Source of the DNA: Raillietiella orientalis
Lineage: Eukaryota
Direction of reading: 5' to 3'
Length of the DNA stretch: 64,000 nt
Assembly: GCA_036172245.1 (NCBI GenBank)
Contig: JAYWIR010000091.1
Coordinates: 124,001-188,000, forward strand
Positions 11,201 through 57,967 of the stretch are shown in pieces (position 1 is the first letter of the stretch; every line of letters starts with the position of its first letter). Made by a program: the position numbers and the translations under genes. The notes under the pieces are model-generated. The model saw nothing but the letters and a program-made list of their open reading frames with translations. It was not told the DNA's origin and did not search any database.

Positions 11201-13239
11201 AGGATTATCCTCGACGAGCGTGATAATACTGGCGAAATTTTCGCATGTATTAAAAGGCTTAAGAGGCGTAAGGCGCCAGGGGAGGACGGCCTGCCCGCGT
11301 TGTTTTTCAAATGCTTTGCGGCAGAGCTGGCCCCCCTGGTGCTTCGGTTGACCGGGCTGATCAAAGACGAAGACGACGTTCCCGAATCGTTTCGGTCAGC
11401 CCGAGTGAGGCTCCTCCCAAAGGGAGAAGACCTGCGAACACTTGAAAATTGTTGTCCGATCAGAATTGTGAATACGGACGCCATGCTGATTGCTGGACTG
11501 TGGGCTTCGCGTTGAGGACAGGTGGCAGACTCCATAATTAGAACGGAACAGACATACGCTGTTCCCGGGAAAAGCATGGATGCCAACCTGTTCTTCACGA
11601 GCACGTGGTTCCAGGTACAACGCTGCCCCAATGAGTCAGGAAGCAAGATTAACAACCCCACTTTGGGGCCGCCAGCGTGGCTGGGGATGGACACCCGGGC
11701 GGGGAAGGGGGCCCTAGCGGTTGCGGTCGATCTCCATAAGGCGTTCGATAGCGTGGACCAGGAGCTACTATTGGAGCTCCTGGGTCGCATGGGCTTCCCA
11801 CCCTCCCTTCTCTCCTACCTGCGCTCTTGCTGGCGGAATGCGCTGATTGACATCTGTTTTAGTGGACAAACGACTACGGCGTGCCGGTGCGACGGGGCAT
11901 ACGGCAGGGCGATAGCCTCAGTCCCCTGCTCTTTAGCACATACTTTGAGTTGGTGCTGAGAACATACAGGGCGACCCTGGCAGCCTTGCCTAGCTCGTGC
12001 GCCGGCACGCTTGCCGTTGCAGCAAACGCCGACGATCTTTTGCTGATGTTGCTCATGTCCTCCCAGGCAGCCGCAGTCGAAGATTTCTTCCACCTGCTAA
12101 GCCGTGGGACTGGATTGAAGGTTAACAAGGCGAAGTCGTCGGTCGTACCGGCTGGAGCGACGTGGATCAGACGGCATGACTGGATCCGCTTGGGGATCCC
12201 CACGGCCAGGTACCTGAAGTACCTGGGTGTCCCGATGGGGGACTTCTGCCTCGCCGAAGCCTGGTCAAATCCTCTCCAAAAGGTAGCGTTGGCAATCGGC
12301 CAGTTCCTGGAAGGCAAGTTCCTTCTGCTGGAAAGGGCCGCGGTGTGGAACGCCTTCGCGGCTCCTATCCTCCGCCCCCTGCTTTTTGTGTGCCCCGTCC
12401 TTGCTCAGTTGAAAAAGAGGACCAAAGATTTTCTCCGTATCGCCCTCTGGGGCAGCGGGAGTCCAAGAGCGCCTCTGAAGGACATATGCGCTCCGCGTCG
12501 GGACGGCAGTCTTGGCCTCCTGACGTTGGAGCGCATGGACATACAGCTGCGAAGGCGCAGCCACCCTATCGCAGCAAAGACATGGAACACCCCTTGGTGC
12601 GTTCTAAACCCGTATCCTCGCCAGACGTGTATCCAGGACGCAAGGACTCGCGTCTTTTCTTCTGTGCTCCGGCCGGAAGGTCAGAAGTTTCGGCCTTCTT
12701 CTTGGACGCATGGAAGCCCTGGTGAGAGAGAACGGCTAAACGGTATGCAGCCCCGCCAACTCCTCCGCTTGGCTGGAGGAAGCCGTTAGGACGTGGGCTA
12801 AGATCAATCAACCGGAAGCACATGAATGGAACCGCCTGCGATTCGGTCCCAACGCCTGCTTTACACTGCGGACTACTCTGGAGTGTCTGAAGTGTGGGCT
12901 GAGACTACCCCTTTAGCTTCGACCCTGCCCTTTCTGCAAAGGGCTTTAACCAGCGGCCGGACGCCAAAGTGGAAAGTCTTCTGCCAAATCGCAGGCAGAG
13001 AGAAGAAGATGAGCAGCTGGACCATGGGAGAACTGGCAGATGTTACGACCCCGAGTGCTCTCACGCGTGGACTTCTTAGATGGGGCGAGCTGCTCGGCAT
13101 CCCGACGGATGACCTGAAGTGGCCCCCAGTATTAATTGGATCCAGGCTTCTCTTACTGAAGTGGCAAAAGTCGGCGCTGCTGCTGTTGCACTGGAGTCTA
13201 CCCGGCAATGCGCGTCGCTTCCACTGGTAGCGGAGAAGT
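8248..13239 (+). mobile_element. E4: family-A element from 5' end to just before the zinc finger, interrupted by E5
   Basis: 5' motif GCGGACGAGTTTTTT at 8249. ORF1 8342-10040 with knuckles CCYCDAVGEL..C and CRRCKEKGH..C. EN 10040-10774. RT fragments 10979-12789. Ends at NARRFHW. Confidence 0.9.
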
Positions 13240-16179
13240 TTTCACCCGGTCACGCCAGGGCGTTTCTTCCCAAATACTTTGATTTTGCGGTACGTGGCCC
13301 CGCTATGGCCAATAGTTCTTTAAACCTGCCGGGAAGACGGCTCGCAAGCCGGCTTGACTCTCCTCGGCAGCGGAAAGGGTAGGGGGTTAAAACGAGAAGA
13401 GAAATAAAAGAAATAAACTAAAAGAAACTATGTAGAGGGCCGGGAAGGGATCACAGCCCGCTGGCGGAAGAGACCATCCTTTCGACGATGCCCTCGAGGT
13501 ACCTTCTCATTGTTTCCAGATGGGACCAGCCGATCGCGAATCGCAGGTATCGACCAGCATGTACGATGGGATCCCTGTCGCTGCTTTCTCTGTTGGCTGC
13601 TCTCCACGCGGTCACAATCCCTCGGAGGCAGCAAAGTGCTGCCAGGGCTGAGGCTGGTGTCAGAGCGTGTCGCGGGAAGAGGAGTCTCATAACGTCTCTA
13701 GGGGGTGCTGCCTACCGGCATTGAAAGGTACGTAGCAAAACGTTCCCACAAGGGCCGGAGGGCAACGCAGTCCACTAACAGATGGGGGAGGGATTCCTTC
13801 TCCCCGCACACTGCACAGTTCTGTTCAACATTCTTCCACGTCCAGTGGTGGCGGCGCGCGTTGCAGGGAAAACCTCAGTGCAACAACAACAGCGCCTTTT
13901 TTTGCCACTTTAGGGGGAGGATGGATGAATCAATGAACGACGGGAGCCACTCTTGGTCATCCGTCGGGATGCCAAGCAGCTCGCCTCATCTCCTTAGTCC
14001 ATGCGGGTGAACTCTTGGGGTCGCGGCGTCAGCCAGTTCCCTCATGGTCCATCCACTCAGATACTTCTCCTTGCCCGCTATCTGGCTCGAGGCTTGCCAC
14101 GTCGGCTTTCGTCTGTTTTGAAGCGCCCTTCGTAAGAAAGGCTGTGCCGTGTCCAGTGGGGAAGTCAGCACCCAAGTGCTTCTGGCGGGGCACACGTTCA
14201 TGTTCCGCAGCGTGCGGCGGCTGTGAATGCCGGGACGCAGGCAGTTGCAGGATTCTTCACTGATTTCGTTAAACTTTGCCCAAGTTACAGCTGTTTCTTC
14301 CAGCCATGCGCTGGGGTTGGAGGGGCTGCAGGCCATCCAACCGCTCTTCTTTGCCAGGGGGGCCATGAGTCCCAGATGAAGTCCGCATCTTCTTATTTTC
14401 CGGCCCAGGCACAGAATACAAGACGCGAGTCCTTTAGTCCCGGACACACGTCTGGGGAGACAGCAAACTAGAACGCACCAAGGGGTGCTACACATTTTTG
14501 CAGCGATAGCTAGAGTACGCCACCACAGGCTTGTTTCCATTCGCTCCATCGTCAGTACGCTGAGATTTCCGTCCCGACTTGAAGGGCACAAGTCTTTTAA
14601 AGGCACACGAGGCCTTCCGCCGCCCCAGAGGGCGATACGTAGGAGGTCCTTTGTTCTTTTTTTGAGTTCACGGATACGAAGCATACAAGAAGCAAGGAGA
14701 GAAGAAGGGGGGCCTGGAACGAGTTCCACACCGCGGCCCGTTCCGGCAAGTGAAGCTTCCCTTCCAGGAACGGACCGATCGCTGACTCCACTTTTTGGAG
14801 ACGACCTGACCAGAATTCTGACTTACAGAAGTTCCTCAACGGAAAGCCGAGGTACTTTAAGTACCTGTCAGTGGGGATCCCCAGGCGGATCCTATCACGT
14901 CGTCCTGCCCACGTTGCACCAACCGCAACCAGCGATGACTTCGTCCTGTTCACCTGTAGTCCTGTCCCACGGCTCAACAAGTCGAAGAAATCTTCGACTG
15001 CCAAAGCCGGGGCGGACATGGGCAGCAGGAGCAAAAGATCGTCAGCGTACGCCGACACGCCCGGCGTACCTGTACACGAGCTTGGCAGGGCAGCCATTGT
15101 CACCCTGTATGCTCTTAGCACCAGTTCGAAATAGGTGCTGAAGAGTAGGGGACTCAGGCTGTTGCCCTGCCGGATGCCGCGCCTTACCGGTACGCCGAAC
15201 ACATGCTGTCCTCTGAAAAATATGTTGATGATCGCATTGCGCCAGCGGGTGCGCAGGTAAGCCAATAAAGTGTCCGGGAAGCCCATGCGATCCAGGAGCT
15301 CTAGAAGGAGTTCCTGGTCCACGCAATCGAACGCTTTGTGCAGATCGACTGCGATCGCTAAAGCCCCCTTCCCTTCCCGGCAGTCCCTTGTTCGCCGCGC
15401 TGGCGTTACCAAATTAGGTTTGTCGTCATTTTGTTCTTTTTTCTTCTCTTTTAATTCGTATCGTAGATTGAACCATGTGCTAGCGAAGAACAGGTTCGCT
15501 TCCATGCTTCGCTTGGGAATAGCGTACGTCTGTTCCGGGCTGACGAAGCTGTGAGCTACCTGTCCCAGTCGCGCAGCGCACAGTCCGGCTAGCAGCTTGG
15601 GGTCCGTGTTCACTATCGTGATCGGACGCCAGTTGCTTAATTTCCTGAGGTCTCCTCCCTTAGGGAGGAGCCTCACCATGGCTTACCGAAACGAGGAAGA
15701 AACCTCGCCTTGTTCTCGGATCAGCAATGTCAATTTGAGCACCAGGGGTGTCAGCTCTGCGGCGAAGCACTGAAAGATCTCCAGCAGGCCGTCCTCCCCT
15801 GGCGCCTTACACCTTTTGAGCCTTTTAATCGCGGTGATGATTTCCCCGTTCGTAAAAGGCTCGCCGGGGCTTGCTTTCTCCTCCTCATCTGTGCCCGGGG
15901 CTCCATCTGGAAGCAGGCGCCGCAAAACGTCCCACTCCGCAGGTGCCCTTGGGTAGAGAGAGGATTAAAATCCGCAAACAAGGCGACGTATCGAAGCCGG
16001 CTCCGAGAGTTCCTGGTCGAAATAGTCCAGCACGCTGGGCGGTCCGGTTTGCCATGCTTGACGCTCGGCCCCGGCTTTGTATTCCGCCAAGCGACCGACG
16101 TCAGGGGTCCTTGCGAAAAGACGGGCGTGCAAATACGTCCTTTCGTTGCGAACTGCTAAACTAAATCCCCTTTGGGGAG
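13240..16179 (-). mobile_element. E5: 3' half of family-A element (linker, RT, zinc finger, 3' UTR), probable partner of E11
   Basis: ORF 14597-15679 has LLPKGGDLR..NWRPIT, HKAFD, GIRQG, AYADD, KYLG. Terminal hairpin CGCCCTGGCGTGACCGGGTG at 13262-13243. Confidence 0.9.
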
Positions 16180-18551
16180 AGAGGACGTGCTTTTCCTGCG
16201 CTCCGCCTGCGTGGCAAGGCGAGTGGCTTTTCCTTCAGTGGTTTGTGCGTACACATCGTCGGTGTCCGATGGCAGCGTTGCCAGAGGACACTGCGATGGA
16301 AGTAGGCGTGGAGGAGGCTTGTTCGTCCCCACAGCCCACTGGATCATGGGCATCCGCCCCGGAATCGTCCCCGGCGACGCCGAGGTCATAGAGCGCCATG
16401 GTGGCCGCGCTTAGCGTCGAAGCCATGGCCGAGATGGAAGCCTACAAGAAAGCGGTGAATAAACCCTCGCTAGTCTATGAGGTAGGCAACCTTTTTGATG
16501 GACGGACTGCACGCGCCTTTACGCAGGCGCTGCAGAAGGACAATATCCTCGAACAAGATCTTGACGGCCTCTCCGTCCTCAGCGGCGGGCAGCGGATCGA
16601 GGTGGTATGCAAAGATATCACCTTGGCCCAACGCCTGATCACCGACCCGCTCATCGTTAATAGTTGAAAAATCTTGCCGGTGACGTTGGACCGCTCGGTA
16701 GTGGTTCATCTCACTGGGATCTCCAGTCGCATGACTAGGTCAGCGGTTGGAGATCAGTTGCGAAAGTACGCAGAAGTGCACGCGTTGTGGCCGGAGCCCA
16801 CGAATTTCCAAGGCTACAATAGGCTTTTCGGGGGTCAAGCTGCGGCGCGTATCACCGTAATAGAGGCTGGTGCGCTTCCCCACTAGGTATAGGTCTGCCA
16901 AGAAGCGGTGGACCTCTGGTACGTGGGGAAACCCCAATTTCGTGGCTACTGCAATGCAGTAGGGCATCTACGAGAAAGGTGCCCGAACATTGTGTGCCAA
17001 ATGCGGCGAAAAGGGTCACGTTCGGCGCGTGAGCTTGAAGCGCCCCACCCCGGTGCCCACTGCCGCCAAAAAGGCGCAGGGAAAACGTGGAAAGCTGGTA
17101 GAAAGACCAGCTAGCGAAAATGGCCGTTCCCAACTGCGTGCCTCCCTTCCTCCCGTACAGACGTCAGAGGAAAGAGCTCCCGTGGACGCGGGAATGGAGG
17201 AGGGTTGGCAGCTGGTTCAGGCCAGAAAAGAGAAAAAAAAGAAAGTGATGATAGAAGAAAATTCGGAGAAGAAAACTGCCGGCAACAAGAAAAAAGCCGC
17301 GCCGCTTTCAAAAAAAAAACTCCGCGAATGCTCGGTGGCACTGGAACGCTTAGCCGTTCCTGCCGAGGCCGCCCGCGGCAATGTTCACCAAACAGCTGAT
17401 GCGGATGCGATATATACTCGCGTGGACGAGCCCATTCTACGTTTAGAGGGTGAGACGCGAGCCTCGTTCGCCGACAGCCAGCAAGCCGCGCTCGATAAAG
17501 TCGCGGAGGAGCCCCCGGCAACGGTCGCCGCTAGTGAAGACGCGGCCTTCGAGAAAGCGGCGGAGGAGCTCGCAGCAACGCTCGCCGAGCGCGAAACCCG
17601 TCGCGTAAGGGCGTGCGCAGGCCGGCTCCGACGAAGAAGGCCCCCGCAGGTGAGTGCGACCTGGGGGCCAGAAGCGCATCCTCCTCCTCGGAGGCACCCC
17701 CCAGGAAGTCGGGACGCAAGTCCCAGAATCCCAGGAGGCGCCTCCCCTCCACCAGCGAGGAGGAGAAGCCGGAAGGCAGCTTCAGCGTGGGAATACCAAA
17801 GAGGAAATTCCCACGCCCGGAAGCCGTCAAGTCGGCCATCCCCATGGAGGAGGATGAGCAGGGGGGTGAAGTCCTCCCTGCAGTCGCGGAACCTGAGCAC
17901 CCCGAACCCATGGAGGAGGGCGAACAGGTAGGCGCGACTCCACCTGCGGGTGATCCGGTCGACGCTCAGGCACCGATGAAGGGGGAGGAACAGGTGCCAT
18001 CAGTACCTGTACCCCCTCCCCCTCCACCTAGGGTCCCGCCTTAGCAGGTGGCAGACGCCGCATCGCCGTTTTCCCAGGACTAACACCTGGGCTCGCCAGT
18101 CGCCATCGGATTCGCGCGGCCTGTTGGAATGTCAACGGGCAGCGCGACGACGGCAACAGGCGAGATACAGCCGACATTCTGCGGGAGCTCGACCTGGCTC
18201 CGCTGCAGAAGATCTTCTTGATCTCTGCGGCGGATGTCCAGGAAATCGAGACGATCGCGAAGGGTCGGCTGTACTGGCAATGCGGCTGCCGCATCACCTG
18301 CGGGGTCGCGTTCTTCGTGAGCGCAGTTATCGAAGCTGCCGTGAAGGGCGTGCGGTTTGATGACGACGGTCGGATCGGTCAGCTGATTCTCAGCTGGTCC
18401 GACTCGATCGACCTAATCGTCACAAATGTGTATGGCATCAGCGGCAAACAGGGGTACCGCGACCGCACCACGCTGCTGGAAACCCTGAAGCGCGACTGGC
18501 TGGCGAATACCAATGTGCGGAAGGCTCACCTGAGAGCGGGAGATTTCAATC
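16180..18551 (+). mobile_element. E6 5' part: family-A element (ORF1 16269-18083, EN up to AGDFN), split by E7/E8
   Basis: GGACGTGCTTTT at 16183. ORF1 closely similar to E4. EN ORF 18218-18646 reads ..KAHLRAGDFN and then switches to E7 5' UTR sequence. Confidence 0.9.
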
Positions 18552-18569
18552 GAGTGCGGACGTGTTTTT
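18552..18569 (+). promoter_or_regulatory. Conserved 5'-terminal motif (G)CGGACGTGTTTT, candidate internal promoter element
   Basis: Variants near the 5' end of E2 (6128-), E4 (8249+), E6 (16183+), E7, E8 (24474+), E11 (41736-) and E15 (57956-). Confidence 0.55.
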
Positions 18570-18629
18570 CTTCGCTCTCGTCTCCGTGCTTTCATCCGCT
18601 TCATCTTGGCGTCGTACATTTTGACGACG

Positions 18630-20552
18630 ATGTCGACCCAACTTGAAGCTACTGAAGTTGGAGGAACAGCATCCGGATCTGCAATCGCGGAACCGACGGC
18701 CGCCTCCACTTCGTATTTCTCGCCGATGGAGAGGAGTTTTGCTGACGTTGCTGCCACAGCAGCCATCAAAGGGAAACCACTCGACGAGTCGGAGTTGCGG
18801 GCATACGTAGCCCAAGGCTATAGACCTGCTCTCCGATATAAGGTGAGTGGCTTTCTTTCTGCGCGCGACGGAAATCAGTTCAACGATGAACTGACCCGTG
18901 TTGGCGTGCGGGAGGATGACCTTCTCGCCATTATGCCCGTAAAAGACATGGGCTATTTCAAGGTGCGTTGCAAAGACGCTGCACTTGTGCAACGCTTGCT
19001 GCGCACCCCGTTGTCGATCCGCGGCCAGAAGGTCTTCCCGGCCGCCATGGACGACTCATTTGTGGCGGAGATTTTCGACATCGAGTCGGAAATCTCCGAT
19101 ATTGATATTCGGAACGCGTTGGCGAAATTCGCCACGCTCCATGCGCTGTGGAGGGTGCGTAGCAACCTCAAGGACTTCCCGTCCATACACAGCGGAGTCG
19201 CTGGAGTCCAACTTACAATGCCGGACCGCCGTCTGCTGCCCACCAAATTACAGGTGAAAGACACGGTCGTTCACCTGTGGTTCGTGGGCAAATTAAGAAC
19301 GTGCGAGCAATGCGGGAAGAAGGGGCATTGTTTGGATAAATGCCCCTCTGGAAAATGCCGTTATTGCAAACTATCCGGGCACCAATTGAAAAATTGCCCG
19401 GATCTTTTGCGAAAAAAGGCAGCCGCGAAGCTCCATCCTAGAAAACAAAGCGCGGATAAAAAGAAAAAATCTGCGAAAAACCTGGAGACCCCACGGCAGA
19501 AATTCCGAAATAACGCGAGGCGGAATGTCGCCCCACAGCAGCAGGAAACCTCGCACGCGAAGCCCTGCGCGCCCCCTCTCGCGGCACGGGAGCCGCAAAA
19601 GAAAGGGTGCGGGGAATTCGGGGCAATGGTAAGTCCCCCTAGGCGCAATAGCTGTCACTCGCAAGCACGCCCGGCTCTTTCGGAGTTCGAGCAACCGGCG
19701 GGGACGTCAATCGTCAACGGCGGTAAGGACACTTCCAGTACCGACAGATGCATTCCTTCACCTCCTGCAGTGGCTGAGAAGCCCAAATCGGGTAAGAAGG
19801 GTTGTGCCGTGTCGACTTCGAAAGTCGGCAAAAGAAAATCCGCGTCGCGTTCCAACACCGCGAAAGCGGAGAAAAATCTCTCGCCGTCGCAATCGGAGAG
19901 GAAGCTCTCGACTGGCGCGGATGCCATGCCAACGAAGGGATTAAAATCCCTTCCGAAGGCAGCGTCCAAGACGAGCGTGTCGAAGCCATCCAAAGTGCTC
20001 CCGTCCAAAGACGCGGATGGCTTCAAAGATGGCAATGGAGCACAATCTCCATTTACGGCGCCACGCGAAGTGAGGAACCGTAATGAAGTAAAGAAGACTT
20101 GAGCAAAGGTCCCTCGTGCAGCTGCGCGTGAGCACGCTGAAAACGCGCGCGCCGGGAAAGCAGCCGTCACCAAAAGCGATGCTCTGGTGACGGAAAACGA
20201 CAACAGGACAGCTGTCAATCCAGCAGAACCTGTCACTGCTTCGCGGAAGGCCGAAACCCGATCGAACATGCGCCGGTCGGACTCCGAAATGGATGCCGTT
20301 CCGATCACCGAGACGAGGACAACTCGTTCGAAAGCGTGTGCGCGCCGATCAAAAGTAGCCAGCCAGGCAACTCTAGCCGCGAAGCCACGCAAAGTCTCCA
20401 CGAAACCCCACGGGGATAAGCCTGGCGTGGAGGCATTACATGCATGCAGCACGACAGAGGACGGTGGCGACCGTCCCCTCCAGCCAGTCGTGCTGCTCGC
20501 CGTCTGCTCGCCGGATAAAGCGAGCAAAAAGCCGCCACCTTCCCAGCAGTAA
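18630..20552 (+). pseudogene. E7 ORF1, gag-like nucleic-acid-binding protein with two CCHC knuckles; premature TGA at 20100
   Basis: CEQCGKKGHCLDKC and CRYCKLSGHQLKNC, with a basic low-complexity C-terminal half. E8 has TCA at the equivalent stop codon. Confidence 0.88.
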
Positions 20553-23500
20553 TGCGGGGAATCGCGTCTTCTCGTCGTCTGTCCGTAACGTGTTGGAACG
20601 TGAACGGACTACAGAACGACGACAAGAGGCGATTAGTAGCCAACGCCCTGCGCCCCTTCGACCTCGCGCACCTGCAGGAGATTCACGTAATCTCCGACGA
20701 GAAGGCAACCGAAATCGAGGAGCGCGCAGGCGGAACGCTACATTGACGGTGCGGCGGCGCACACACGTGCGGCGTTGCGTTCCTCGTAAGAGGAAAAATG
20801 GCGGAAGCGGTGCGTAGTGTTCGTTTCGATGACGACGGACGGATAGGCCAGCTTGTCATCAAGTGGTCCGAGTCCATCGATCTCGTCGTTACGAACGTCT
20901 ACGCGTCGGGTGGCTCTCGCTACCTCGAAGAAAGAGTAGCTTTCTTTGGTGAGGTGCAGAGCCACTGGCTCAACAACTGCGGTTTCCAAGTGGCGCACCT
21001 CGTCGCTGGGGACTTCAACGTCCGCCTGCTCTCCGACGATTGGAGCCGCCCGAGGGAGCGCGCGCTGCCCATCCAGATGTGCGCGTCCTTGCACGCCGCC
21101 AACTTGATAGTCAGCGAACCTGAAATGGAAGGATCGCTCGATCATTCCATTTTCCTCGATGAAAACCTGCATTCGCGTGTGGGTAGGAGAGGAAGATTGT
21201 TGACTAGGCTTTCTGACCACAACAGGTTGGAGTTTGAGATTCTTCCGGCAGACAAGGGGCCTCCGTTGCAAAACTGGAGGATGCAGGCGGATTGGCTTAG
21301 CCAACCGGAGGCTGCGGAGCATCTACGTGGATACCTCCGAGGCTTTGCCATTCAAGAACTTGCGGACTGGGACGATCTCAAAAGATCTGTCCGCGAGTTC
21401 TCCTGCCAATTCCCCTTGCATCGGCTTCCACGCGGTTTCGGAGAGGACATGGCCAACAGTAGAGACTTTCAGCAGGCCCGCACGTTTTCGAGACGCGCGG
21501 ATGTCGGGCGTCTCGCAGAGTACAAGGCGAGGGACGAGCGCCAGGTCTGGCATTCCGGAGCAGCAAGCCTGTTGGACGACAAGGGCCAGGAATGTTCGGC
21601 CCCAGCCGAAGTACGCCGCATTGTGAGACGCTACTACACCTCGCTCTACGCGGAATCCCCGACGGAGGATATTCTTTCTGAGATACTCCTGTCTCAGGAT
21701 GCTCGTGTTGTCGGCGAGGAGGAACGCGAACGTCTCGACGAGCCCTTCACGGCGGATGAACCTTCGTCCGCCATCGCTGGGCTGAAGAGACGAAAGGCGC
21801 CAGGCGAATACGGGCTCCCTGCAGAGTTTTATCAGTGCTTTGCAGTGGAGCTCATTCCCTTGATGCTGAAACTCGCGACGCTGATGAGTGAATCCAGGAA
21901 TGTCCCGGATTCCTTCCGCTCAGCGAAGGTGCGTCTCCTGCCGAAAGGCGGAGACTTGCGCCAACTTAACAACTGGCGTCCGATCACCCTTGTGAACTCG
22001 GACGTCAAGTTGTTTTCCAAGCTGTGGGTCGCGCGGTTAGGAAGAATCGCGGAATCTGTGGTGAGCCCGGAACAAACCTACGCGGTTCCGGGACGATCCA
22101 TGGAGGCAAACATCCTTTTCGCGCGTACATGGATGCAGCTGCAGGATGTTGTGGCGCAACAAAGCCAGGCTGCTGCGAAAGTCACTGCCGCAGGCAAAAA
22201 GAACAGGCGCCGACGGCAGGAGGGAACACCAGGTGCCTTGGCGGTCGCGGTCGATCTCCACAAGGCGTTCGACTGCGTAAACCAGAAGCTGCTTCTGGAG
22301 CTTATGGAACGTCTTGGGTTCCCGGCGCAACTCCTGCTGTATTTGCGCGCTGCTGGCGCCACGCGCTAACCTGCATCACTTTTAGCGGCTGCCGCGTGTA
22401 TGGTATTCCCGTCCGTAGGGGTATCCGACAGGGCGACAGCTTAAACCCGTTGCTCTTCAGCATCTTCTTTGAGTTGGTGCTAAGAGCATACAGGCTGACG
22501 CTGTCTCACTTGCCAAGCTCCTGCCCGGGAACGCCTGCCGTGGCCGCCTACGCTGATGACCTGCTTCTTCTGCTCCCCATGTCCACCCAGGCGTCCAGTG
22601 TCGAGGATTTCTTCGACCTGATTCGTCGGGGAGCGGGCGTGAGCGTGAACAGAGAGAAGAGCGTGGTCGTTCCTGTGGGTACGTCGTGGGAGGGGCAGTC
22701 CGACTGGATCCGCCTGGGGATCCCCACGGGCGGGTACTTTAAGTACCTTGGCGTTCCGTTAAGCGCTTTCGGCGCAGCCGAAGCGTGGGCGGACTGTCTT
22801 CAGAAAGCAGAGTTGGCCATCAGCCCGTTCTTTAACGGCAAGTTTACCGTGCAGGAACGGGCGACTATTTGGAACACCTTTGTGGCCCCCCTCCTCCGTC
22901 CCCTGTTTTTTGTTTTGGACCCCCCCTATGCGGCAAAACAGCATGCTAAGCGCCTGCTGAGGAACGCTGTCTGGGGTCCGGCGAGATCCAGGATCCGCCT
23001 TAAAGATTTCTTAGCTCCGCGTCTGGATGCTGGTTTGGGTATCTTGACAATGGAGCGAATCGGACTGCAGGTGCAGTTCCGACTGCTGGCACTGTGTGCC
23101 CAGCTATGGACATCCCCCCTGGGTGTGCCAGCCCGCATTCTCCTGCGGAGATGCGCCGGCAGCGGAGGATTTCTCTCGCTTTTGCCGGGCACTCAATACA
23201 GGAAGCGGGGTTTCGGGTTTCCATTGCGGCAGTTAACCGCACTTCTGGAAGCACACTCGTGTATCTCCTGCCGCCCAATGAACTTTGAAGCTTGGCGGCA
23301 GGAGTCTGTTAAATCCTGGGCGGCGTTCCAAGGAATACGCCCTGAAGATCTTCGCCCCCTGCGCCAATTTTTTCCACGATCCTTGGAAGAAGTACTGCAG
23401 GACGAGGTGAAGTTTTCTACCCTGGCGGCCACGCCTCTTGCCTCAGCGCTGTCTGCCCTCAGGGCAAGAAACGACAGTTACCAACCGGCGAGGTGGGAAG

Positions 23501-24147
23501 TTTCCTGCACGATAGCGGGAAGAACCAAACTCCTTGGCACCTGGAAGACAAGTGAGTAGGCGGACGCCGCCACTCCTCGTGTTACTGCAAAGGGACTCCT
23601 CCGGTGGGCAGAAGAACTTGCTGTCACCCCCGTAGAACTTGTAGTCCCTCCACAGTGTATAAACAGATCGCTGCTCCTTCTTGCTTGGAAACAAGCCGTG
23701 CTGCTTTTCGTTCACTGGGGTTTTCAGTGCAACGAGCGTTGGCATCGTGACTCCGGGGGACTTGCGTCTGCGAACAGCGTTCGGTGCGGATCGATGGAGT
23801 CGATTCCGCACCTACTTCTGGACTGCGGTGTCCTACAAGGACTGTGGTGTAGGCTGGCAACAGCAACAATGCATCCCGTGGACACCGCAAGAGACTTGCT
23901 GCGACGATTCTTCACGCCGAGCGGGCTTTCACTAAGCGCAAGGATTGCAACCATCGGTTGCATACGCGCGATAGTTTCCGTCCACCAGGCGTTCGTAATC
24001 AACGGACAGCACCAAGAGGTAATCAGCAAAGCATCCATCTACATGGGAGCATCCGCTAGATGGCCTCATTTGACAGAGGAGACAAAAAGGAATCTCGCCG
24101 CAATACACCGCCGGTTTACACACCCTCATCAGCGGCCAACCCGGTGA
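20552..24147 (+). pseudogene. E7 ORF2, APE endonuclease-reverse transcriptase-zinc finger (~1200 codons); stops at 20744 and 23557, frameshift ~22349
   Basis: WNVNG, LQE, AGDFN, SDH; KAPG, NWRPITL, HKAFD, QGDS, AYADD, KYLG; xVRCG..HLLLDC. Confidence 0.92.
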
Positions 24148-24469
24148 TCATTGCCCTACCCTCCATATACTAAATTTCTATTTTCTTTTTACACCCGCGT
24201 CCCTATAGGCTCCGGAACATTTTAGGTGCTCATCGTATAAATCCCCGTGAGTACGGAGCCTAACCAAAAACCCGTTACCCTTCGCTCCAGTTTTTGATTT
24301 TTGTTTGTTTCCCCTCATTCCCCCCACGCTGCGAGCGGTTTGTTTACCAGGCCTGCGTGCCGGTCATTTTTCTATGTTCTCTGTCGTTCTCTTGGTTGGG
24401 GACATTGTCCCTGACCAGTTTATTATTATTAATAAAAGGCCGGGCGTGACCTGGTGATAAATTTCAATC

Positions 24470-27400
24470 GAGTGCGGACGTGTTGTTCTTCGCTCTCGTC
24501 TCCGTGCTTTCATCCGCTTCATCTTGGCGTCGTACATTTTGACGACGATGTCGACCCAACTTGAAGCTACTGAAGTTGGAGGAACAGCATCCGGATCTGC
24601 AATCGCGGAACCGACGGCCGCCTCCACTTCGTCTTTCTCGCCAATGGAGAGGAGTTTTGCTGACGTTGCTGCCACAGGAGCCGTCAAAGGGAAATCACTC
24701 GACGAGTCGGAGTTGCGGGCATACGTAGCCCAAGGCTATAGACCTGCTCTCCGATATAAGGTGAGTGGCTTTCTTTCTGCGCGCGACGGGAATCAGTTCA
24801 ACGATGAACTGACCCGTGTTGGCGTGCGATAGGAGGACCTTCTCGCCATTATGCCCGTAAAAGACATGGGCTATTTCAAGGTGCGTTGCAAAGACGCTGC
24901 ACTTGTGCAACGCTTGCTGCGCACACCGTTGTCGATCCGTGGCCAGAAGGTCTTCCCGACCGCCATGGACGACTCATTTGTGGCGGAGATTTTCGACATC
25001 GATTCGGAAATCTCCGATATTGATATTCTGAACGCGTTGGCGAAATTCGCCACGGTCCATGCGCTGTGGATGGTGCGTACGAACCTCAAGGACTTCCCGT
25101 CCATACACAGCGGAGTCGCTGGAGTCCGGCTTACAATGCCGGACCGCTGTTTGCTGCCCACCAAACTACAGGTGAAAGACACGGTCGTTCACCTGTGGTT
25201 CGTGCGCAAAGTAAGAACGTGCGAGCACTGCGGGAAGGAGAAGCAATGTTTGGATAAATGCCCCTCCGGAAAATGCCGTTATTGCAAACTATCCGGGCAC
25301 CAATTTAAAAATTGCCCGGATCTTTTGCGAAAAAAGGCAGCCGCGGAGCTTTATCTTAGAAAACAAGGCGCGGATAAAAAAAAATATCTGCGAAAAACAT
25401 GGAGACCCTACGGCAGAAATTCCGAAAAAACGAGAGGCGGAATGTCGCCCCAGAGCAGCAGGAAACCTCGCACGCGAAGCCCTGCGTGCCCACTCTCGAG
25501 GCAGGGGAGCCGCAATAGAAAGAGTGCGGGGAATCCGAGGCAATGGTAAGTCCCCCTAGGCGCAATAGCTGTCCTTCCCAAGCACGCCCGGCTCTTTCGG
25601 AGTTCGAGCAACCGGCGGGTACGTCAATGGACAACGGCGGTAAGGACACTTCCAGTACCGTTAGATAGAAATCCTTCACCTCCTGCAGTGACTGAGAAGC
25701 CTAAATCGGTTAAGAAGGGTTGTGCAGTGTCGACTTCGAAAGTCGGCAAAAAAGAATCCGCGTCGCGATTTAACACCACGAAAGCGGAGAAAAATCTCAC
25801 GCCGTCGCAATCGGAGAGCAAGCTCTCGACTGGCGCGGTTGCCGTGCCAACGAAGGGATTAAAATCCCTTCCGAAGGCAGCGTCCATGACGAGCGTGTCG
25901 AAGCCATCCAAAGTGCTCCCGTCCAAAGACGCGGATGGCTTCAAAGATGTCAATGGAGCACAATCTCCATTTACGGCGCCACGCGAAGTGAGGAACCGTA
26001 ATGAAGTAAAGAAGACATCAGCAAAGGTCCCTCGTGCAACTGCGCGTGAGCACGCTAAAAACGCACCCGCCGGGAGAGCAGCCATCACCAAAAGCGATGC
26101 TCTGGAGACCGAAAAAGACAACAGGACAGCTGTGAATCCAGCAGAACCTGTCACTACTTCGCGGAAGGCCGAAGCCCGAACGAACATGCGCCGGTCGGAC
26201 TCCGAAATAGATGCCGTTCCGATCACCGAGACCAGGACAACTCGTTCGAAAGCGTGTGCGCGCCGATCAAAAGTAGGCAGCCAGGCAACGCTCGCCGCGA
26301 AGCCACGCGAAGTCTCCACGAAACCCGACGGGGTTAAGCCTGGCGTGGTGGCATTACATGCATGCAGCACGACAGAGGACGGTGGCCACCGTCCCCTCCA
26401 GCCAGTCGTGCTGCTCGCCGTCTGCTCGCCGGATAAAGCGAGCAAAAAGCCGGCACGATCCCAGCAGTATTGCCGGGAATCCCGTCTTCTCGTCGTCTGT
26501 CCGTAACGTGTTGGAATGTGAACGGACTATAGAACCACGAGAAAAGGCGATTAGTAGCCAACGCTTTGCGCCCCTTCGACCTCGCGCTCCTGCAGGAGAT
26601 TCACGTAATCTCCGACGAGCAGGCAGACGAAATCGAAAAGCGCGCAGGCGGAACGCTACATTGGCGGTGCGGCGGCGCACACACGTGCGGCGTCGCGTTC
26701 CTCGTAAGAGGAAAAATCGCGGAAGCGGTGCGTAGTGTTCCTTTCGATGACGACGGACGGATAGGCCAGCTTGTCATCAAGTGGTCCGAGTCCATCGATC
26801 TCGTCGTTACGAACGTCTACGCGCCGAGTGGCTCTCGCTACCTTGAAGAAAGAGTAGCTTTCTTTGGTGAGGTGCAGAGCCACTGGCTCAACAACTCCGG
26901 TTTCCAAGTGGCGAAACCTCGTCGCTGGGGACTTCAACGTCCGCCTGCTCTCCGACGATTGGAGCCGCCCGAGGGAGCGCGCGCTGCCCATCGAGATGTG
27001 CGCGTCCGTGCACGCCGCCAACTTGATGGTCAGCGAACCTGGAATGGAAAGATCGCTCGATCACGTTTTCCTCGATGAAAACCTGCATTCGCGTGTGGGG
27101 AGGAGAGGAAGATTGTTGACTAGGCTTCCTGACCACCACAGGTTGGAGTTTGAGATCCTTCCGCCAGGCAGGGGGCCTTCGTCGCAAAACTGAAGGATGC
27201 AGGCGAATTGGCTTAGCCAACCGGTGGCTGCGGAGCATCTACGTGGATACCTCCGAGGCTTTGCCATTCAAGAACTTGCGGACTGGGAAGATCTCAAAAC
27301 ATCTGTCCGCGAGTTCTGCTGCGAATTCCCTTTGCACGGGCTTCCACGCGGTTTCGGAGAAGGCGTGGCCCACAGTAAAGACTTTCTGCAGGCCCGCACG

Positions 27401-30376
27401 TTTTTGAGACGCGCCGATGTCGGGCGTCTCGCAGAGTACAAGGCGACGGCCGAGCGCCAGGTCTGGCAGTCCGGAGCAGCATGCCTGTTGGACGACAAGG
27501 GCCAGGAATGTTCGGCCCCAGCCACAGTACGCCGCATTGTGAGACGCTACTAATCCTCGCTGTACGCGGAATCTCCGACGGAGGATATTCTCTCTGAGAT
27601 ACTCCTGTCTCAGGATGCTCGTGTTGTCGGCGAGGAGGAACGCGAACGTCTCGACGAGCCCTTCACGGCGGATGAATTTTCGTCCGCAATCGCTGGGCTG
27701 AAAAGACGAAAGGCGCCAGGCGAGGATGGGCTTGCTGCAGAGTTTTATCAGTGCTTTGCAGTGGAGCTCCTTCCCTTGTTGCTGAAACTCGCGACGCTGA
27801 TGAGTGAATCCGAGAATGTCCCGGATTCCTCCCTCTCAGCGGAGGTGCGTCTCCTGCCGAAAGGCGGAGACTTGCGTCAACTTAACAACTGGCGTCCGAT
27901 CACCTTGTTGAACTCGGACGTCAAGTTGTTTTCCAAGCTATGGGTCGCGCGGTTAGGAAGTATCGCGGAATCTGTGGTGAGCCCGGAACAAACCTACGCG
28001 GTTCCGGGACGATCCATGGAGGCGAACATCCTTTTCGCGCGCACATGGATGCAGCTGCAGGAAGTTGTGGCGCAGCAAAGACAGGCTGCTGCGAAAGTCA
28101 CTGCCGCAGGCAAAAAGAAAAAGCGCCGACGGCAGGAGGGAACGCCAGGTGCCTTGGCGGTCGCGGTCGATCTCCTCAAGGCGTTCGACTGCGTAAACCA
28201 GAAGCTGCTTTTGGAGCTTATGGAACGCCTTGGGTTCCCGGCGCAACTCCTGCTGTATTTGCGCGCGTGCTGGCGCCACGCGCTAACCTGCATCACTATT
28301 AGCGGCTGCCGCGTGTATGGTATTCCCGTTCGTAGGGGCATCCGACAGGGCGACAGCTTAAGCCCGTTGCTCTTCAGCATTTTCTTTGAGTTGGTGCTAA
28401 GAGCATACAGACTGACGCTGTCTCACTTGCCAAGCTCCTGCCCGGGAACGCCTGCCGTGGCCGCCTACGCTGATGACCTGCTTCTTCTGCTCCCCATGTC
28501 CACCCCGGCGTCCAGTGTCGAGGATTTCTTCGACCTGTTTCGTCGGGGAGCAGGCATGTGCGTGAACAGAGAGAAGAGCGTGGTCGTTCCTGTGGGTACG
28601 TCGTGGGAGGGGCAGTCCGACTGGATCCGCCTGCGGATCTCCACGGGCGGGTACTTTAAGTACATTGGCGTTCCGTTGGGCGCTTTCGGCGCAGCCGAAG
28701 CTTGGGCGGACTGTCTTCAGAAAGCAGAGTTGGCCATCAGCCCGTTCTTTAACGGCAAGTTTACCTTGCAGGAACGGGCGACTATTTGGAACACCTTTGT
28801 GGCCCCCCTCCTCCGTCCCCAGTTTTTTGTTTCGGACCCCCCCTATGCGGCAAAACAGCGGGCTAAGCGCCTGCTCAGGAACGCTCTCTGGGGTCCGGCG
28901 AGATCCAGGATCCGCCTTAAAGATATCTTAGCTCCGCGTCTGGATGCTGGTTTGGGTATCTTGACATTGGAGCGAATCGGACTGCAGGTGCAGTTCCGAC
29001 TGCTGGCACTGTGTGCCCAGCAATGGACATCCCCCCTGTGTGTGCAAGCCCGCATTCTCCTGCGGAGATGCGCCGGCAGCGGAGGATTTCTCTCGCTTTT
29101 GCCGGGTACTCAATACAGGAAGCGGGGTTTCGGGTTTCCATTGCGGCAGTTGACCGCACTTCTGGAAGCTCACTCGTGGATCTCCTGCCGCCCAATGAAC
29201 TTTGAAGCTTGGCGGCAGGAGTCTGTTGAATCCTGGGCGGCGTTCCAAGGAATACGCCCTGAAGATCTTCGCCCCCAGCGTCAATTTTTTCCACGATCCT
29301 TGGAAGAAGTACTGCAGGACGAGGTGAAGTTTTCTACCCTGGCTGCCACGCCTCTTGCCGCAGCGCTGTCTGCCCTCAGGGCAAGGAACGACAGTTACCA
29401 ACCGGCGAGGTGGGAGGTTTGCTGCACGATAGCGGGAAGAACCAAACTCCTTGGCGCCTGGAAGACGAGTGAGTTGGCGGACGCCGCCACTCCTCGTGTT
29501 ACTGTAAAGGGACTCCTCCGGTGGGCTGAAGAACTTGCTGTCACCCCCGAAGAACTTGAAGTCCCTTCACAGTGTATTGACAGTTCGCTGCTCCCCCTTG
29601 CTTGGAAACGAGACGTGCTGCCTTTCGTTCAATGGAGTTTTCAGTGCAACGAGCGTTGGCATCGTGTCTCCGGGGGACTTGCGTCTGCGAACTGCGTTCG
29701 GTGCGGATCGACGGTGTCGATTCCGCACCTACTTCTGGACTGCGGTGTCCTACAAGGACTGTGGTGTAGGCTGGCAACAGCAACAATGCATCCCGTGGAC
29801 ACCGCAAGAGACTTGTGCGACGATTGTTCACGTCGAGCGGGCTGTCACTAAGCGCAAGGATTGCAGCCATCGGTTGCATACGCGCGATAGTTTCCGTCCG
29901 CCAGGCGTTGGTAATCAACGGACAGCACCAAGAGGTAATCAGCAAAGCATCCTTCTACATGGGAGCATCCGCTAGATGGCCTCATTTGACAGAGGAGACA
30001 AAAAGGAATCTCGCCGCAATACACCGCCGGTTTACACACCCTCATCAGCGGCCAACCCGGTGATCATTGCCCTACCCTCCATAAACTAATTTTGTATTTT
30101 CTTTTTACACCCGCGTCCCCATAGGCTCCGGAACATTTGAGGTGCTCATCGTTTAAATTTCCGTGAGTACGGAGCCTATCCAAATTCCCTTTTCCCTTCC
30201 CTCCAGTTTTTGATTTTTGTTTGTTTCCCCTCATTCCCCCCACGCTGCGAGCGGTTTTTTTACCAGGCCTGCGTGCCGGTAATTTTTCTATGTTCTCTGT
30301 CGTTTTGTTGGTTGGGGACATTGTCCCTGACCAGTGTATTATTATTAATAAACGCTCCGGCGTGACCGGGTGATAA
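24470..30376 (+). mobile_element. E8: second full-length family-B copy in direct tandem with E7
   Basis: Colinear with E7 over its whole length (>90% by eye) with different disabling changes. 696-aa RT-containing ORF at 27761-29851. AATAAA at 30347 plus hairpin. Confidence 0.95.
26470..30063 (+). pseudogene. E8 ORF2 (APE-RT-zinc finger), disrupted
   Basis: EN pieces 26566-27193; RT/zinc finger 27761-29851 (AYADD, CVRCG..HLLLDC); C-terminus 29815-30063. Confidence 0.9.
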
Positions 30377-33300
30377 ATTTCAATCTCCGCCTGCTAACAG
30401 GTGAGCCGGAAACACAAGTGAACGCGATGAACGAGTTGTGCGCCGCCATGCGTGCTCGCAACTTGTTCGCGGGTGAGAGGGGAATGGTCCGCAGCATCGA
30501 CCACGTGTTCCTCGACGCTGACCTATGTTCACGGGTCGGCAAACGGGGGAGGGTTGCGTCAACGTTGTCGGACCATTCCCGGTTAATTTTCGAGATGCGG
30601 CCTCGCGACAAAGGACCGCCATCCAGGGACTGGCTTCTGCCGGGGGACTGGACGCGACTCTCAGGTGCGAAGGAACACCTTCGGGAATGCCTGAGAGGCG
30701 TCACGCTCCGGAATCTCCAAGACTGGGACCTTTTTAAGGAATCGGTCCGGGAGTTCTGCGAGGAGTTCCCCCTGGACCGCCTGCCCTCCGGATTCGGCGA
30801 GGGTCTTCGCAACCAGGTCCGGGAATGTTCGTCCCCGGCGTCGGTACGGCATCTCGTGCGGAGTTATTATTCCTCCCTTTACGCCAGGGCGCCCCCGGAT
30901 CAAGATGCCTCTCGGCTCTTGCTTCCGGATGGTGCCCCGGCAATAGGGGAGGAGGGGTCGTTAAGCCTCGATGAGCCTTTTACCACCGGCGAAATTCTTG
31001 CCGGTATCAAAAGGCTCAAGAGGCGGAAAGCTTCAGGGGAAGAAGGCTTGCCCGCGGAATTCTATCAGATCTTCGCGTAAGAGCTGTCACCCCTGCTGCT
31101 TGAGCTGACAAAGCTGATCCGAGACGGAGGCGATGTTCCCGCCTCGTTTCGGTCAGCCAGAGTGAGGCTCCTTCCGAAAGGGGGAGATCTTAGGAATTTG
31201 AACTGGCGTCCGATCACGATTGTGAATACGGACGCCAAGTTGGTTGCCGGGCTATGGGCTTCGCGTCTGGGGCAGGTGGCAGAATCCGTAATTAGCCTGG
31301 AGCAGACATATGCTGTTCCCGGGCGAAGTATGGATGCCAACCTCTTTTTCGCGAGCACATGGATGCACGCGCAGAGGTGTCAAAAGGAAGGGAAAGGAAA
31401 AATCGGCAACCCCACTTTGGGGTCGCCAGCCGGGCTGGAAAGGGACCCCCGGGCAGGGAAGGGGGCCCTAGCGCTCGCAGTCGATCTCCATAAGGCGTTC
31501 GACTGTGTTGACCACGGCCTTTTGTTGGAGCTCCTGGGTCGCATGGGCTTCCCACCCTCCTTGATCAACTACCTGCGCTCCTGCTGGCGCCATGCGAGAA
31601 TTTCCATCTTTCAGCAGTCAGAAGGTGCATGGCGTGCCGGTGCGGCGGCGCATCAGGCAGGGAGATAGCCTGAGTCCCCTGCTCTTCAGGACCTACTTTG
31701 AGTTGGTGCTGAGAGCCTACAGGGTGACTTTGGCCTCCTTGCCGAGCTCGTGTCCCGGCACGCCCGCCGTAGCAGCCTATGCCGACGACCTTCTGCTCCT
31801 GTTACCTATGTCCACCCCGGCGAAGGCGGTCGGAGACTTCTTCGATCTGCTCAGTCGTGGGACCGGACTGCAGGTCAACAGGGCGAAGTCGTCGGTGGTG
31901 GCAGTAGGTGCGGCGTAGGCAGGGCAGCAGGACTGGGTCCGTCTGGGGATCCTCACGGCGAAGTGCCTCAAGTACCTTGGTGTGCCGTTGGGTGACTACT
32001 CCCCAGCGGAAGCGTGGTCCAGCTGTCTTTAAAAAGTGGAGACGGCGATCGGCCCTTTCCTGGAAGGCAAGTTTCACTTGCCGGAACGGGCCGCGGTTTG
32101 GAACGCCTTCGCGGCCCCCATCCTCCGCCCTTTGCTTTTTGTTTGCCCTCTCACCGTGGAATCAAGAAGAGGACGAAGGACCTCCTCCGCATCGCCCTTT
32201 GGGGCAAGGGGAGTCCCCGAGTCCCTCTGCAGGACTTGTGCGCCCCGCCTCGGGACGGCGGCCTTGGCCTCCTGACGCTGGAGCGGGTGGAAATCCAGCT
32301 GGGGTGGCGAACCCTCGCCATCGCAGCGAAGATGTGGAGCACCCCTTGAGCGTTCCGGCCCGCCACCTCGCCAGGCGTGTGTCCCGACGCGTAGGACTCG
32401 CGTCGTTTCTTCTGTGCCCTGGCCGGAAGAACCGAAGATGCGGCCTTATGCTCGGACGCATAGCAACCTTGGCGAAGACAAACGGTTGGATGGTTTGTGG
32501 CCCCGCCAACTCCTCCGCCTGGTTGGAGGAGTCTGCTAGCACATGGGCTAAGCTGAACCGGAGAAGTGAAAACCACATGAACTGCCTGCGAATCGGTCCA
32601 TACGCCAACCGCACCCTGGGGGAAATACTGGAATTTCCCCGGAGTCGCAGGTGGGCGTTGACGACCCTTCTTGCTACGGCGATGCCCTACCTCCTGAGGG
32701 CGCTTCAGGATCGCCAGAAGCCGAGGTGGCAAGTCACCTGCCAGATCGCAAGATGTTAAACGGCTGGACCACAGGAGAATTGGCGGACGGCACGACCCCG
32801 AGCGTCCAGCCGCGTGGATTAATGAGATAAGGCGAGCTGCTCGCCATCCCTACGGATGTGCTGAAGTGGCCCCCGGTACTAAAGGAATCCAGGATCCTGC
32901 TACTTAAGTGGCAAGAGTCGGCGTTGCTACTGCTGCACTGGGGTTTACCCTGCAACGCACGACGCTTCCACTGGACAAGGGGAACTGTGGATCCTGAGTG
33001 TGTCAGGTGCGGAGAGCGGGAATCGCTCTCCCACCTTATGGTGGACTGTGCTGCCATCTGATCCCTCTGGGAACGGTTCGGGGCGACCCTAGGGCTCCCT
33101 ACGGGCAGCACCCCCAGAGACGTTCTTCGGCCCCTCTACGTGAAGGACGCACTGCAGCCAGCCGCAGCCATCGCAGCCTTGTGCTGTGTCCGTGGCATCG
33201 TGGCGGCATGGAGCGACGCCAAGAACGAAGGAGTTTATCCACACGCGAGGGATGTCATCCCAGACGCCCAACGCTTCATGCGGAGAGCTGCCGGATGGCC

Positions 33301-33583
33301 CCAACTGGGGAATATACGGACGGACCTCGAGGGCTTCCTTCAACGGATGGGCCCTCCTCACAGCGTTTAGTGATCCCTTCCCTGCCCTCCAACTTCTTTT
33401 TGTCTGTTTATTTTTTATTTTTCTTTTTGTTTTATCCCCATCCCCCTTTGCTGCTGAGGAACGCTACGCTGGGCTGCGTCCCGGCGTCCCGGCAGGTGCA
33501 GTGCATATGGCCGTGAGCGGGGCCTTGTACCGCGGATGTAGAGTTTTTTAAAAATAAACGCCCCGGGCGTACCCGGGTGTAAA
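30377..33583 (+). mobile_element. E6 3' part: rest of EN, RT, zinc finger, 3' UTR
   Basis: FNLRLL..SIDHVFLD..SDH (30370-31080), AYADD (31592-31918), CVRCGERESLSHLMVDC. AATAAA at 33553 plus CCCGGG-CGTA-CCCGGG hairpin. Confidence 0.92.
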
Positions 33584-37615: not shown

Positions 37616-37617
37616 AC

Positions 37618-39095: not shown

Positions 39096-39096
39096 A

Positions 39097-43998: not shown

Positions 43999-44056
43999 GT
44001 TATACTAAGATATACAAAGTTATACAAAGATTACACTAAGTTATACTGCGGTTATA
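43999..44056. repeat. Short imperfect ~10-bp tandem repeat (GTTATACTAA-like)
   Basis: gttatactaa gatatacaaa gttatacaaa gattacactaa gttatactgc ggttata. Confidence 0.55.
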
Positions 44057-57960: not shown

Positions 57961-57967
57961 AACCGGA

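Follow-up and report, generated by a model that had tools for sequence, protein, structure and literature searches.

The stretch of Raillietiella orientalis DNA analysed here (64,000 nucleotides, positions 124,001 to 188,000 of contig JAYWIR010000091.1, assembly GCA_036172245.1; hereafter the window, numbered from its first letter) raises the question of whether a retrotransposon can use a defined nucleotide in the coding sequence of its own relatives as a landing site. Long interspersed nuclear elements (LINEs) with an apurinic/apyrimidinic (APE) endonuclease, inserted into one another, form a nest that takes up about 50 kb of the window, as delineated by self-comparison and tblastn. One of these elements, E6, is interrupted within the codons of the Gly-Asp-Phe-Asn (GDFN) motif of its endonuclease by two others, E7 and E8, and a second host, E17, is joined to an element of the same lineage at the same place. 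The reading favored here, to which we assign a probability of about one half, is that the three LINE lineages of the nest (A1, A2 and B) use target-primed reverse transcription to enter each other's copies and reuse three sites, termed G (the GDFN codons), S and U, with a selectivity that would go beyond the five-base nick motif AYYTC. All the counts given below refer to this one 64-kb window and to its seven insertion loci, three of which belong to lineage B.

In the second open reading frame (ORF2) of these elements the endonuclease precedes the reverse transcriptase (RT) in tblastn alignments, which is the order of APE-type retrotransposons that lack long terminal repeats (LTRs). Pfam assigns Exo_endo_phos to 9989-10774 (the endonuclease frame of E4) and RVT_1 to the frames of E7, E8 and E6. 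In the human L1 endonuclease, D145 and N147 are catalytic residues. When compared to human L1 endonuclease structures (PDB 1vyb and its relatives), the E4 endonuclease is matched with an E value of ~1e-5 and LIAGDFNVRL is aligned to LIMGDFNTPL. The three lineages are related and were defined by trees: E1, E7, E8 and E18 form lineage B; E4, X2 (made up of E5 and E11), E6 and E10 form A1; X1 (E3), E9, E15 and E17 form A2. A 3' box, AATAAACGCCCCGG-CGTGACCGGGTGA(N)AA, is common to all three and is not followed by a long A tail. The hallmarks of target-primed insertion are present as duplications of 9, 10 and ~14 bases at sites G, U and S respectively, and E1, E9, E10 and E15 are 5'-truncated.

Two lineage-B junctions in the GDFN codons

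The codons GCG GGA GAT TTC AAT are found on the plus strand at 18536-18550 in the endonuclease frame of E6, GGAGATTTCAAT occupying 18539-18550. The frame is cut inside GGA G|AT TTC AAT by the head-to-tail pair E7 and E8 (5.9 kb each), which share an identical 5' start (GAGTGCGGACG) and an identical 3' box, the end of E7 reading ...CGTGACCTGGTGATAA at 24460. A 9-base target-site duplication, ATTTCAATC, is present in three copies (18543-18551, 24461-24469 and 30377-30385) and the host frame picks up after the third one as FNLRLLTGEPE. The uninterrupted E4 is collinear with E6 across the site, 9514-10507 corresponding to 17539-18550 and 10502-10937 to 30379-30815. On the minus strand, the 3' end of E18 (...GAGGAAAAAA, with ...CGTGAACGAGGAAAAAA at 62758) is followed at 62757 by ATTTCAACGTTCGC and adjoins ATTTCAACG of its host E17, whose endonuclease goes on as FNVRLK and which is collinear with the uninterrupted E9 (34432-35158 vs 62757-62031, 78%). 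Both junctions fall at the same nucleotide, after the initial G of the Asp codon and before its A. As the 5' junction of E18 lies beyond the window, the duplication can be followed at the E6 locus only. The splitting of E6 around E7 and E8 with resumption at 30377, the threefold target, and the second family-B junction in a host of a different subfamily had all been put forward in the preliminary description of this DNA and were confirmed, E18 being grouped within B.

Contigs of three sequencing runs, labeled X1, X2 and X3 independently of the elements, were compared with 17500-31000 at 80% likeness and gave 228, 1 and 8 pieces respectively; run X1, a public one, contained 32% of the sampled words, runs X2 and X3 next to none. 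Among the pieces listed, one contig of run X1, covering 18522-22279, bridges the 5' junction of E7 with E6 at ~97% identity (102 differences) and is a hint only. Another one joins 18542 to 30377 as an empty site would, its shorter side being limited to 21 letters, and is likewise a hint only.

The independence of the two GDFN events was assessed with a maximum-likelihood tree of the hosts, built on ~2 kb downstream of the GDFN site, in which the hosts stand apart from the B elements. The host topology is ((E6,E4),(E17,E9)) with both pairs supported at 100/100, the GDFN codons of E4 and E9 being intact. Every interrupted host is thus paired with a nearer relative free of the insert, and descent from one ancestral composite would call for two exact losses. 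The divergence of the hosts took place largely under purifying selection, with an omega of 0.33 for E4 vs E6 (1,007 codons; 199/176/319 differences by codon position) and of 0.38-0.41 for E9 vs E17, which makes them products of separate retrotransposition events rather than copies of one dead composite. The C-terminal tree of the inserts is (E1,(E18,(E7,E8))), with supports of 99/97 and 100/100, and E18 is old, given its long branch and its 55% identity to E7. The insertion of E7/E8 into E6 and that of E18 into E17 are two independent events; the possibility, raised in the preliminary description, that the 18543 and 62757 junctions descend from one duplicated event was checked and is contradicted by the host tree and by the uninterrupted E4 and E9.

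In its broader form, the view that a single ancestral insertion was copied as DNA would derive the E6+E7/E8 and E17+E18 composites, as well as the paired occurrences at sites S and U described below, from segmental duplication. The identities of the host pair and of the insert pair are indeed alike (66% for E6 vs E17; for E18 vs E7, 55% over the alignment and 67% by BLAST), and E7 and E8 possibly represent a local duplication. Besides the uninterrupted relatives and the purifying selection between hosts (omega 0.33-0.41), the hosts or the inserts of both occurrences at S and at U come from different lineages and the 5' truncation points are unlike between occurrences. This view is very improbable and is already largely refuted in this window.

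Site reuse across the nest

Precise reuse is not confined to the GDFN codons. Site U is antisense and lies in the C-terminal part of ORF2 (^ACTTYTCC). In E4, the sequence breaks off at 13239, where the 3' box of the minus-strand X2 adjoins it, and picks up again at 41788, with a 10-base duplication (ACTTTTCCCC / ACTTCTCCGC). The same tail-to-tail junction recurs at the same nucleotide at 57171/57172 in E14, where the inserted 3' end probably belongs to E17 (A2). Site S is also antisense; it is situated directly past the endonuclease domain (AA^ATCYCCGGGG) and displays a duplication of ~14 bases. Both halves of X2, E5 and E11, end at the duplicated copies AAATCYCC...GG, one on the left and one on the right; the halves fit together, hence E5 and E11 are taken as one element split at S, and trees place both of them in A1. 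Three plus-strand elements are found between the halves: E6 (full length, with E7 and E8), E9 (A2) and E10 (A1, 81% identical to E6). Since E6 forms the left S junction and E10 the right one, at least two separate insertions took place at a single S site; E9, whose 3' end is not clean, may be a third. The 5' junction of E4 was also found at the S-homologous position of X1, an A2 host. Exact reuse of sites and the piling-up of elements at a restored target thus run through the nest as a whole and are special neither to lineage B nor to catalytic codons. The part of the preliminary description according to which a constrained stretch of sister retrotransposons is targeted stands insofar as specific spots are reused; its restriction to GDFN and to lineage B does not, S and U being used by A1 and A2.

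Three observations accompany these insertions. E9 lacks its last ~45-70 bases, including the 3' box. E10 carries a deletion that joins an RT piece at 37612-37792 (equivalent to 31335-31514 of E6) to a part equivalent to E6 from 32305 onward. The 3' end of E4 (GGTGAAAA, ~42388; positions 42381-42661 of the window) abuts the early endonuclease region of X1 on the antisense strand, and its flank, CGTGTAAAC, is outside the AYYTC motif.

The motif AYYTC opens 8 of the 11 3' junctions (those of E1, E7, E8, E18, X2, E17, E10 and E6). As the 50.3-kb nest contains 450 AYYTC sites on both strands, the chance expectation is ~0.9% per junction and the p value for 8/11 is ~6e-15; the nick-site preference AYYTC(C/A) is solid. 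Selectivity beyond these five bases is likely but not proven. A full-length element carries 41-59 AYYTC sites, of which 18-34 are AYYTC[CA], and coincidences were simulated with all site classes taken as equally likely. Three coincident pairs among seven loci are obtained with p = 0.10 for 18 classes, decreasing to 0.01 for 59 classes. At the level of loci, lineages and sites split perfectly, with G, G and N for B and S, S, U and U for A (1/35 = 0.029), site N being the location hit by E1.

Coincidence under a short AYYTC preference would account for the same junctions if insertions merely persist in a LINE-dense, gene-poor block, either by regional targeting or by purging elsewhere. The strength of the motif itself, the limited number of AYYTC[CA] sites per full-length element and the three off-motif junctions are in line with such an account, and at 18-24 site classes p amounts to 0.06-0.10 for the nest-wide reuse and to 0.12-0.16 for the coincidence within B. 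It is nevertheless rather unlikely in view of the three coincident pairs, all nucleotide-exact, of the occupancy of the single S site of X2 by at least two different elements, and of the perfect separation of lineages and sites. In addition, equal class weights would be conservative, as most motif sites should be unconserved between lineages (a point of reasoning, not of computation).

The favored reading can be summarized as the following mechanism. The bottom strand would be nicked opposite 5'-^AYYTC, upon which the 3' junction opens with AYYTC(C/A), and synthesis of the complementary DNA (cDNA) would be primed on an RNA recognised by the ORF2 protein via the shared 3' box. No complementarity is seen by eye between the 3' end of the nicked target (...GAAAT-3') and the RNA tail (...GAUAA-3'). 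A top-strand nick 9-14 bases downstream would create a target-site duplication that restores the site, and later elements may stack head to tail by re-insertion into it. Three ORF2 sites are reused at the same nucleotide, G in sense orientation (G^ATTTCAAY), S and U in antisense, and their location in conserved coding stretches would make them available across diverged lineages. The endonuclease, or the ORF2 protein as a whole, may read more than five bases, with a preferred site that varies by lineage. The GDFN junctions would then be the lineage-B instance of a nest-wide reuse, one of the two GDFN loci carrying a second head-to-tail copy.

The particular status of GDFN was examined by distinguishing the spellings of its codons. 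Two of the three GDFN sites spelled ATTTCAA are occupied, vs none of the five with variant spellings (GGGGACTTTAAY, GGCGATTTTAAC, GGGGACTTCAAC). Across the window ATTTCAA is present 11 times, with eight distinct sites in LINE DNA. The GDFN of lineage B itself reads GGGGACTTCAAC (21008-21019 and 26927-26938) and differs by one synonymous base from the host spellings hit by B, ATTTCAAC and ATTTCAAT. No A-lineage element is located at site G among the resolved junctions.

These data bear on the proposal that lineage B is strictly sequence-specific for the GDFN codons of sister LINEs, a hyper-parasite gaining a safe haven while knocking out the endonucleases of its competitors. The two independent B hits at one nucleotide in hosts of different sublineages, the head-to-tail pair with its target in three copies, the host spelling ATTTCAA one synonymous base away from that of B, and a site G free of A-lineage elements would all suit it. 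Strictness is contradicted by the B copy E1, located at an antisense ATCTCC, and by the empty ATTTCAAC site of X2. The use of sites is accordingly unlike that of strictly site-specific LINEs of the R1/R2/Tx1L type, as A copies use at least two sites and B copies two GDFN loci and one other. Equally precise reuse by A lineages at S and U, both antisense and non-catalytic, makes a particular tie to catalysis unnecessary; the GDFN case comprises two loci (p = 0.05-0.16), and there is no sign of host activity at the time of the hits. This proposal, which hardens that of the preliminary description, is improbable. A wider scheme would provide each lineage with a nucleotide-precise site in sister ORF2: GDFN for B, an antisense FPLHRLPRGF stretch and the C-terminal site for A1/A2. 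Mutual parasitism would build and maintain a centromere-like block, and the GAT to GAC change in the GDFN of B would confer self-immunity. We consider this scheme doubtful at present.

A number of observations must be set against reuse beyond AYYTC. In addition to the small sample, the lineage-by-site test is post hoc, three of the 11 3' junctions (E4, E13 and E15) are off-motif or ambiguous, and one coincident pair among the three B loci is obtained in simulations with p = 0.16 (18 classes) to 0.05 (59 classes), which leaves the GDFN coincidence for lineage B alone only suggestive. The X2 GDFN site with ATTTCAAC (39515, minus strand) is unoccupied, and the fact that both occupied ATTTCAA sites among the eight in LINE DNA are of the GDFN class has a p value of 0.11. 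At site N, the 3' end of E1 lies on ATCTCC, antisense in the N-terminal part of the endonuclease of E2, and not on GDFN. At site S, E9 and E10 meet without a clean 3' end and the middle copy of the site, after E6, matches at just 10/14 positions, which makes the third insertion uncertain. In X1, the 3' junction of E4 is ~610 bases away from site S, an offset pointing to removal of target DNA during insertion or to subsequent loss.

The E7/E8 pair is to be weighed in the same way. The two elements share 94.8% identity across 5,930 bases, with 302 substitutions and 6 indel events. Omega amounts to 0.76 over 1,614 codons, with 80/73/88 differences on the codon positions (chi-square, p ~0.06), and their divergence is almost neutral. 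Two insertions of near-identical copies with decay afterwards would account for this pattern, and a microhomology-mediated tandem duplication would do so equally well. The stacked elements at site S offer a parallel that makes re-insertion into the regenerated target plausible. The intervening ATTTCAATC rules out a simple switch of template from one RNA to another as the origin of the pair. The differences comprise 137 transitions and 165 transversions, an unusually high share of transversions for decaying repeats.

Layout of the nest and adjoining DNA

The nesting order is E4[X2[E6[E7,E8],E9,E10]] and, separately, E17[E18, E15]. The coordinates of the features are collected in Table 1.

Table 1. 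Elements, junctions and site copies of the LINE nest, by position in the window
Feature	Position	Strand	Remarks
E1, outer lineage-B member	780-4067	+	3' end adjoins ATCTCCTCG
X1 (E3, A2), 3' part	6365-8244	-	E4 5' end joined at site-S-homologous position
E4 (A1), nearest relative of E6	8245-13239	+	GDFN intact (GGGGACTTTAAT at 10496); interrupted by X2 at site U
X2 (A1) 3' half, = E5	13240-16176	-	3' box adjoins site U of E4
X2 3' half, left site-S copy	16163-16176		AAATCCCCTTTGGG
E6 (A1) left piece: 5' end, ORF1, endonuclease to G-D-F-N	16177-18551	+	5' end GAGAGAGGACG at 16177, like those of E4 and E7
E7, full-length B LINE (ORF1, endonuclease, RT, 3' box)	18552-24460	+	Reading frames broken
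Middle ATTTCAATC copy, between E7 and E8	24461-24469	+	
E8, full-length B LINE	24470-30376	+	RT frame open over 765 amino acids
E6 right piece: rest of endonuclease, RT, 3' box ...CCCGGGTGTAA	30377-33582	+	Begins with third ATTTCAATC
E9 (A2), 5'-truncated, nearest relative of E17	33583-37611	+	GDFN intact (GGCGATTTTAAC at 34428); middle element of the site-S stack
E10 (A1, sister of E6), 5'-truncated, internal deletion	37612-39096	+	3' end adjoins right site-S copy
X2 5' half, = E11: ORF1 and endonuclease	39097-41787	-	GDFN site GGGGATTTCAAC empty
X2 5' half, right site-S copy	39097-39110		AAATCTCCGGGGCA
E4 remainder past X2	41788-42388	+	Resumes at exactly homologous position
E14, element fragment ending at site U	56976-57171	+	Minus-strand 3' end joined at 57172
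Probable E17 3' remainder, beyond inserted E15	57172-57970		
E15 (groups with A2), 5'-truncated, antisense in E17	57971-60083	+	3' junction ambiguous (CCCAGGTTTCAAAGAAG)
E17 (A2), F-N of GDFN through RT	60089-62757	-	
E18, 3' part of old B element	62758-64000	-	Runs past window edge

A segmental duplication of a [X(-) Y(+)] unit was also considered, as 6634-9151 matches 14543-17089 across the head-to-head junction. It was rejected because E4 and E6 diverged under selection, E5 and E11 are one split element, and the remainder of E4 is located at 41788.

Outside the ORF2 domains, no Pfam family was assigned to ORF1 of E7, in which CCHC knuckles are visible by eye only. The hairpin of the 3' box has a stem of just 4 pairs, almost devoid of covariation among nine aligned 3' ends. 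A metagenome scan for the 3' box returned at least 120 loci; an AATAAA-like sequence lies upstream in 3 of the listed 120, none of them resembling a LINE end, and these were taken as chance matches. A scan of viral contigs with the RT of E8 gave no match. The closest database protein is unnamed and 56% identical, the remaining ones being 22-35% identical; a look-alike cluster of the Atlas, 'Transposon TX1' (score 0.97), serves as a lead only. An exact 11-base motif of the 3' untranslated region (3'-UTR), GGCCTGCGTGC, is located at 3927, 24350, 30266 and 59950 (plus strand) and at 62870 (minus strand). It is common to E1, E7, E8 and E18 and also to E15, although the RT of E15 groups with A2; seven matches are found at no more than one mismatch, vs 1.7 expected.

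The guanine-cytosine (GC) content of the nest is 53-61% (2-kb windows, mostly 55-60%) vs 39-46% in the adjoining block. This lower-GC block, at 42700-56400 (39-46% in 2-kb windows), breaks up the nest and contains an inverted repeat (44677-48433 vs 53594-49838, 82.7% identity). No Pfam family was detected in its 12 scanned open frames of at least 110 amino acids. At the opposite end, positions 1-779 are unlike the rest of the window, and the 5' end of E1 adjoins them instead of the expected continuation of its host E2. They carry a 252-amino-acid open frame (19-777, minus strand) without Pfam match.

Comparison with known systems

Self-targeting LINE clusters make up presumed centromeres in several green algae, and subtelomeres in Cryptococcus. 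The window supplies nucleotide-level candidate target sites (G, S and U) together with a core motif for nicking, and it hints at a division of the sites among sister lineages; such candidate sites make the growth of these clusters a testable question. If true, lineage-specific targeting of conserved coding motifs would add a novel class to the targets of site-specific retrotransposons. A literature search returned no description of a LINE targeting the coding sequence of a sister LINE at defined nucleotides; the original Zepp junction papers (Higashiyama 1997, Yamamoto 2003) and supplements were outside its scope.

The human L1 element has a loose nick site, TTTT/AA, and a poly(A) end. The elements described here share with it the fold family of the endonuclease and the GDFN motif; unlike L1, they end in a conserved box and nick at AYYTC. 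Closer in target preference is the Tx1 clade, found in animals according to passages of Kojima (2015, PMC4494074). The LINEs listed there (Tx1L, Keno, Kibi, Koshi and the crocodilian Tx1 families) include some targeting small nuclear RNA (snRNA) genes. Other targets named in the same passages are (TC)n, (TTC)n and (TTCC)n/(TTTC)n repeats, and, for insertion into other transposons, the piggyBac-type Tx1D by Tx1 and Harbinger elements by Tx1-9_AMi (PMC4494074). The nest elements are likewise of APE type with a target preference, and their AYYTC(C) core resembles the pyrimidine-rich repeats used in that clade. They are unlike it in that the targets are coding sequences of sister LINEs and that the specificity is not strict. 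Celine of poplar is described as residing mostly in other transposons, with a unique target-site duplication for each element and no shared landing site (PMC11288735).

Clustering has been attributed, in partial accounts of both systems, to insertion into existing copies in the LINE clusters of green algae and in Cnl1. The latter, found in subtelomeric arrays of Cryptococcus, is reported to insert into its own copies with a precise sequence specificity described as undefined, and is placed with R2/MoTeR-type elements and linked to telomere repeats in the corresponding passages (PMC12810828). The elements of the window differ from Cnl1 in being of APE type with an ORF1, and no telomere repeats were seen in the window. 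The closest known behavior is that of Zepp and of the Zepp-like self-targeting LINE clusters of green algae. Nested Zepp clusters coincide with local GC peaks in the portion of Blanc et al. (2012, PMC3446292) that concerns them. As with the L1-type LINEs Zepp of Chlorella and Coccomyxa and ZeppL-1 of Chlamydomonas, GC-rich nested LINE clusters stand here in lower-GC DNA, and nested clusters or tandem arrays formed by insertion into existing copies, which define the Zepp-like type, are found here as well. A further trait of that type is a single cluster on each chromosome, located at the presumed centromere. The likeness is one of behavior and GC pattern. In contrast to the Zepp case, the present nest contains several full-length members, three diverged lineages that insert across one another, and insertion sites resolved to the nucleotide within ORF2.

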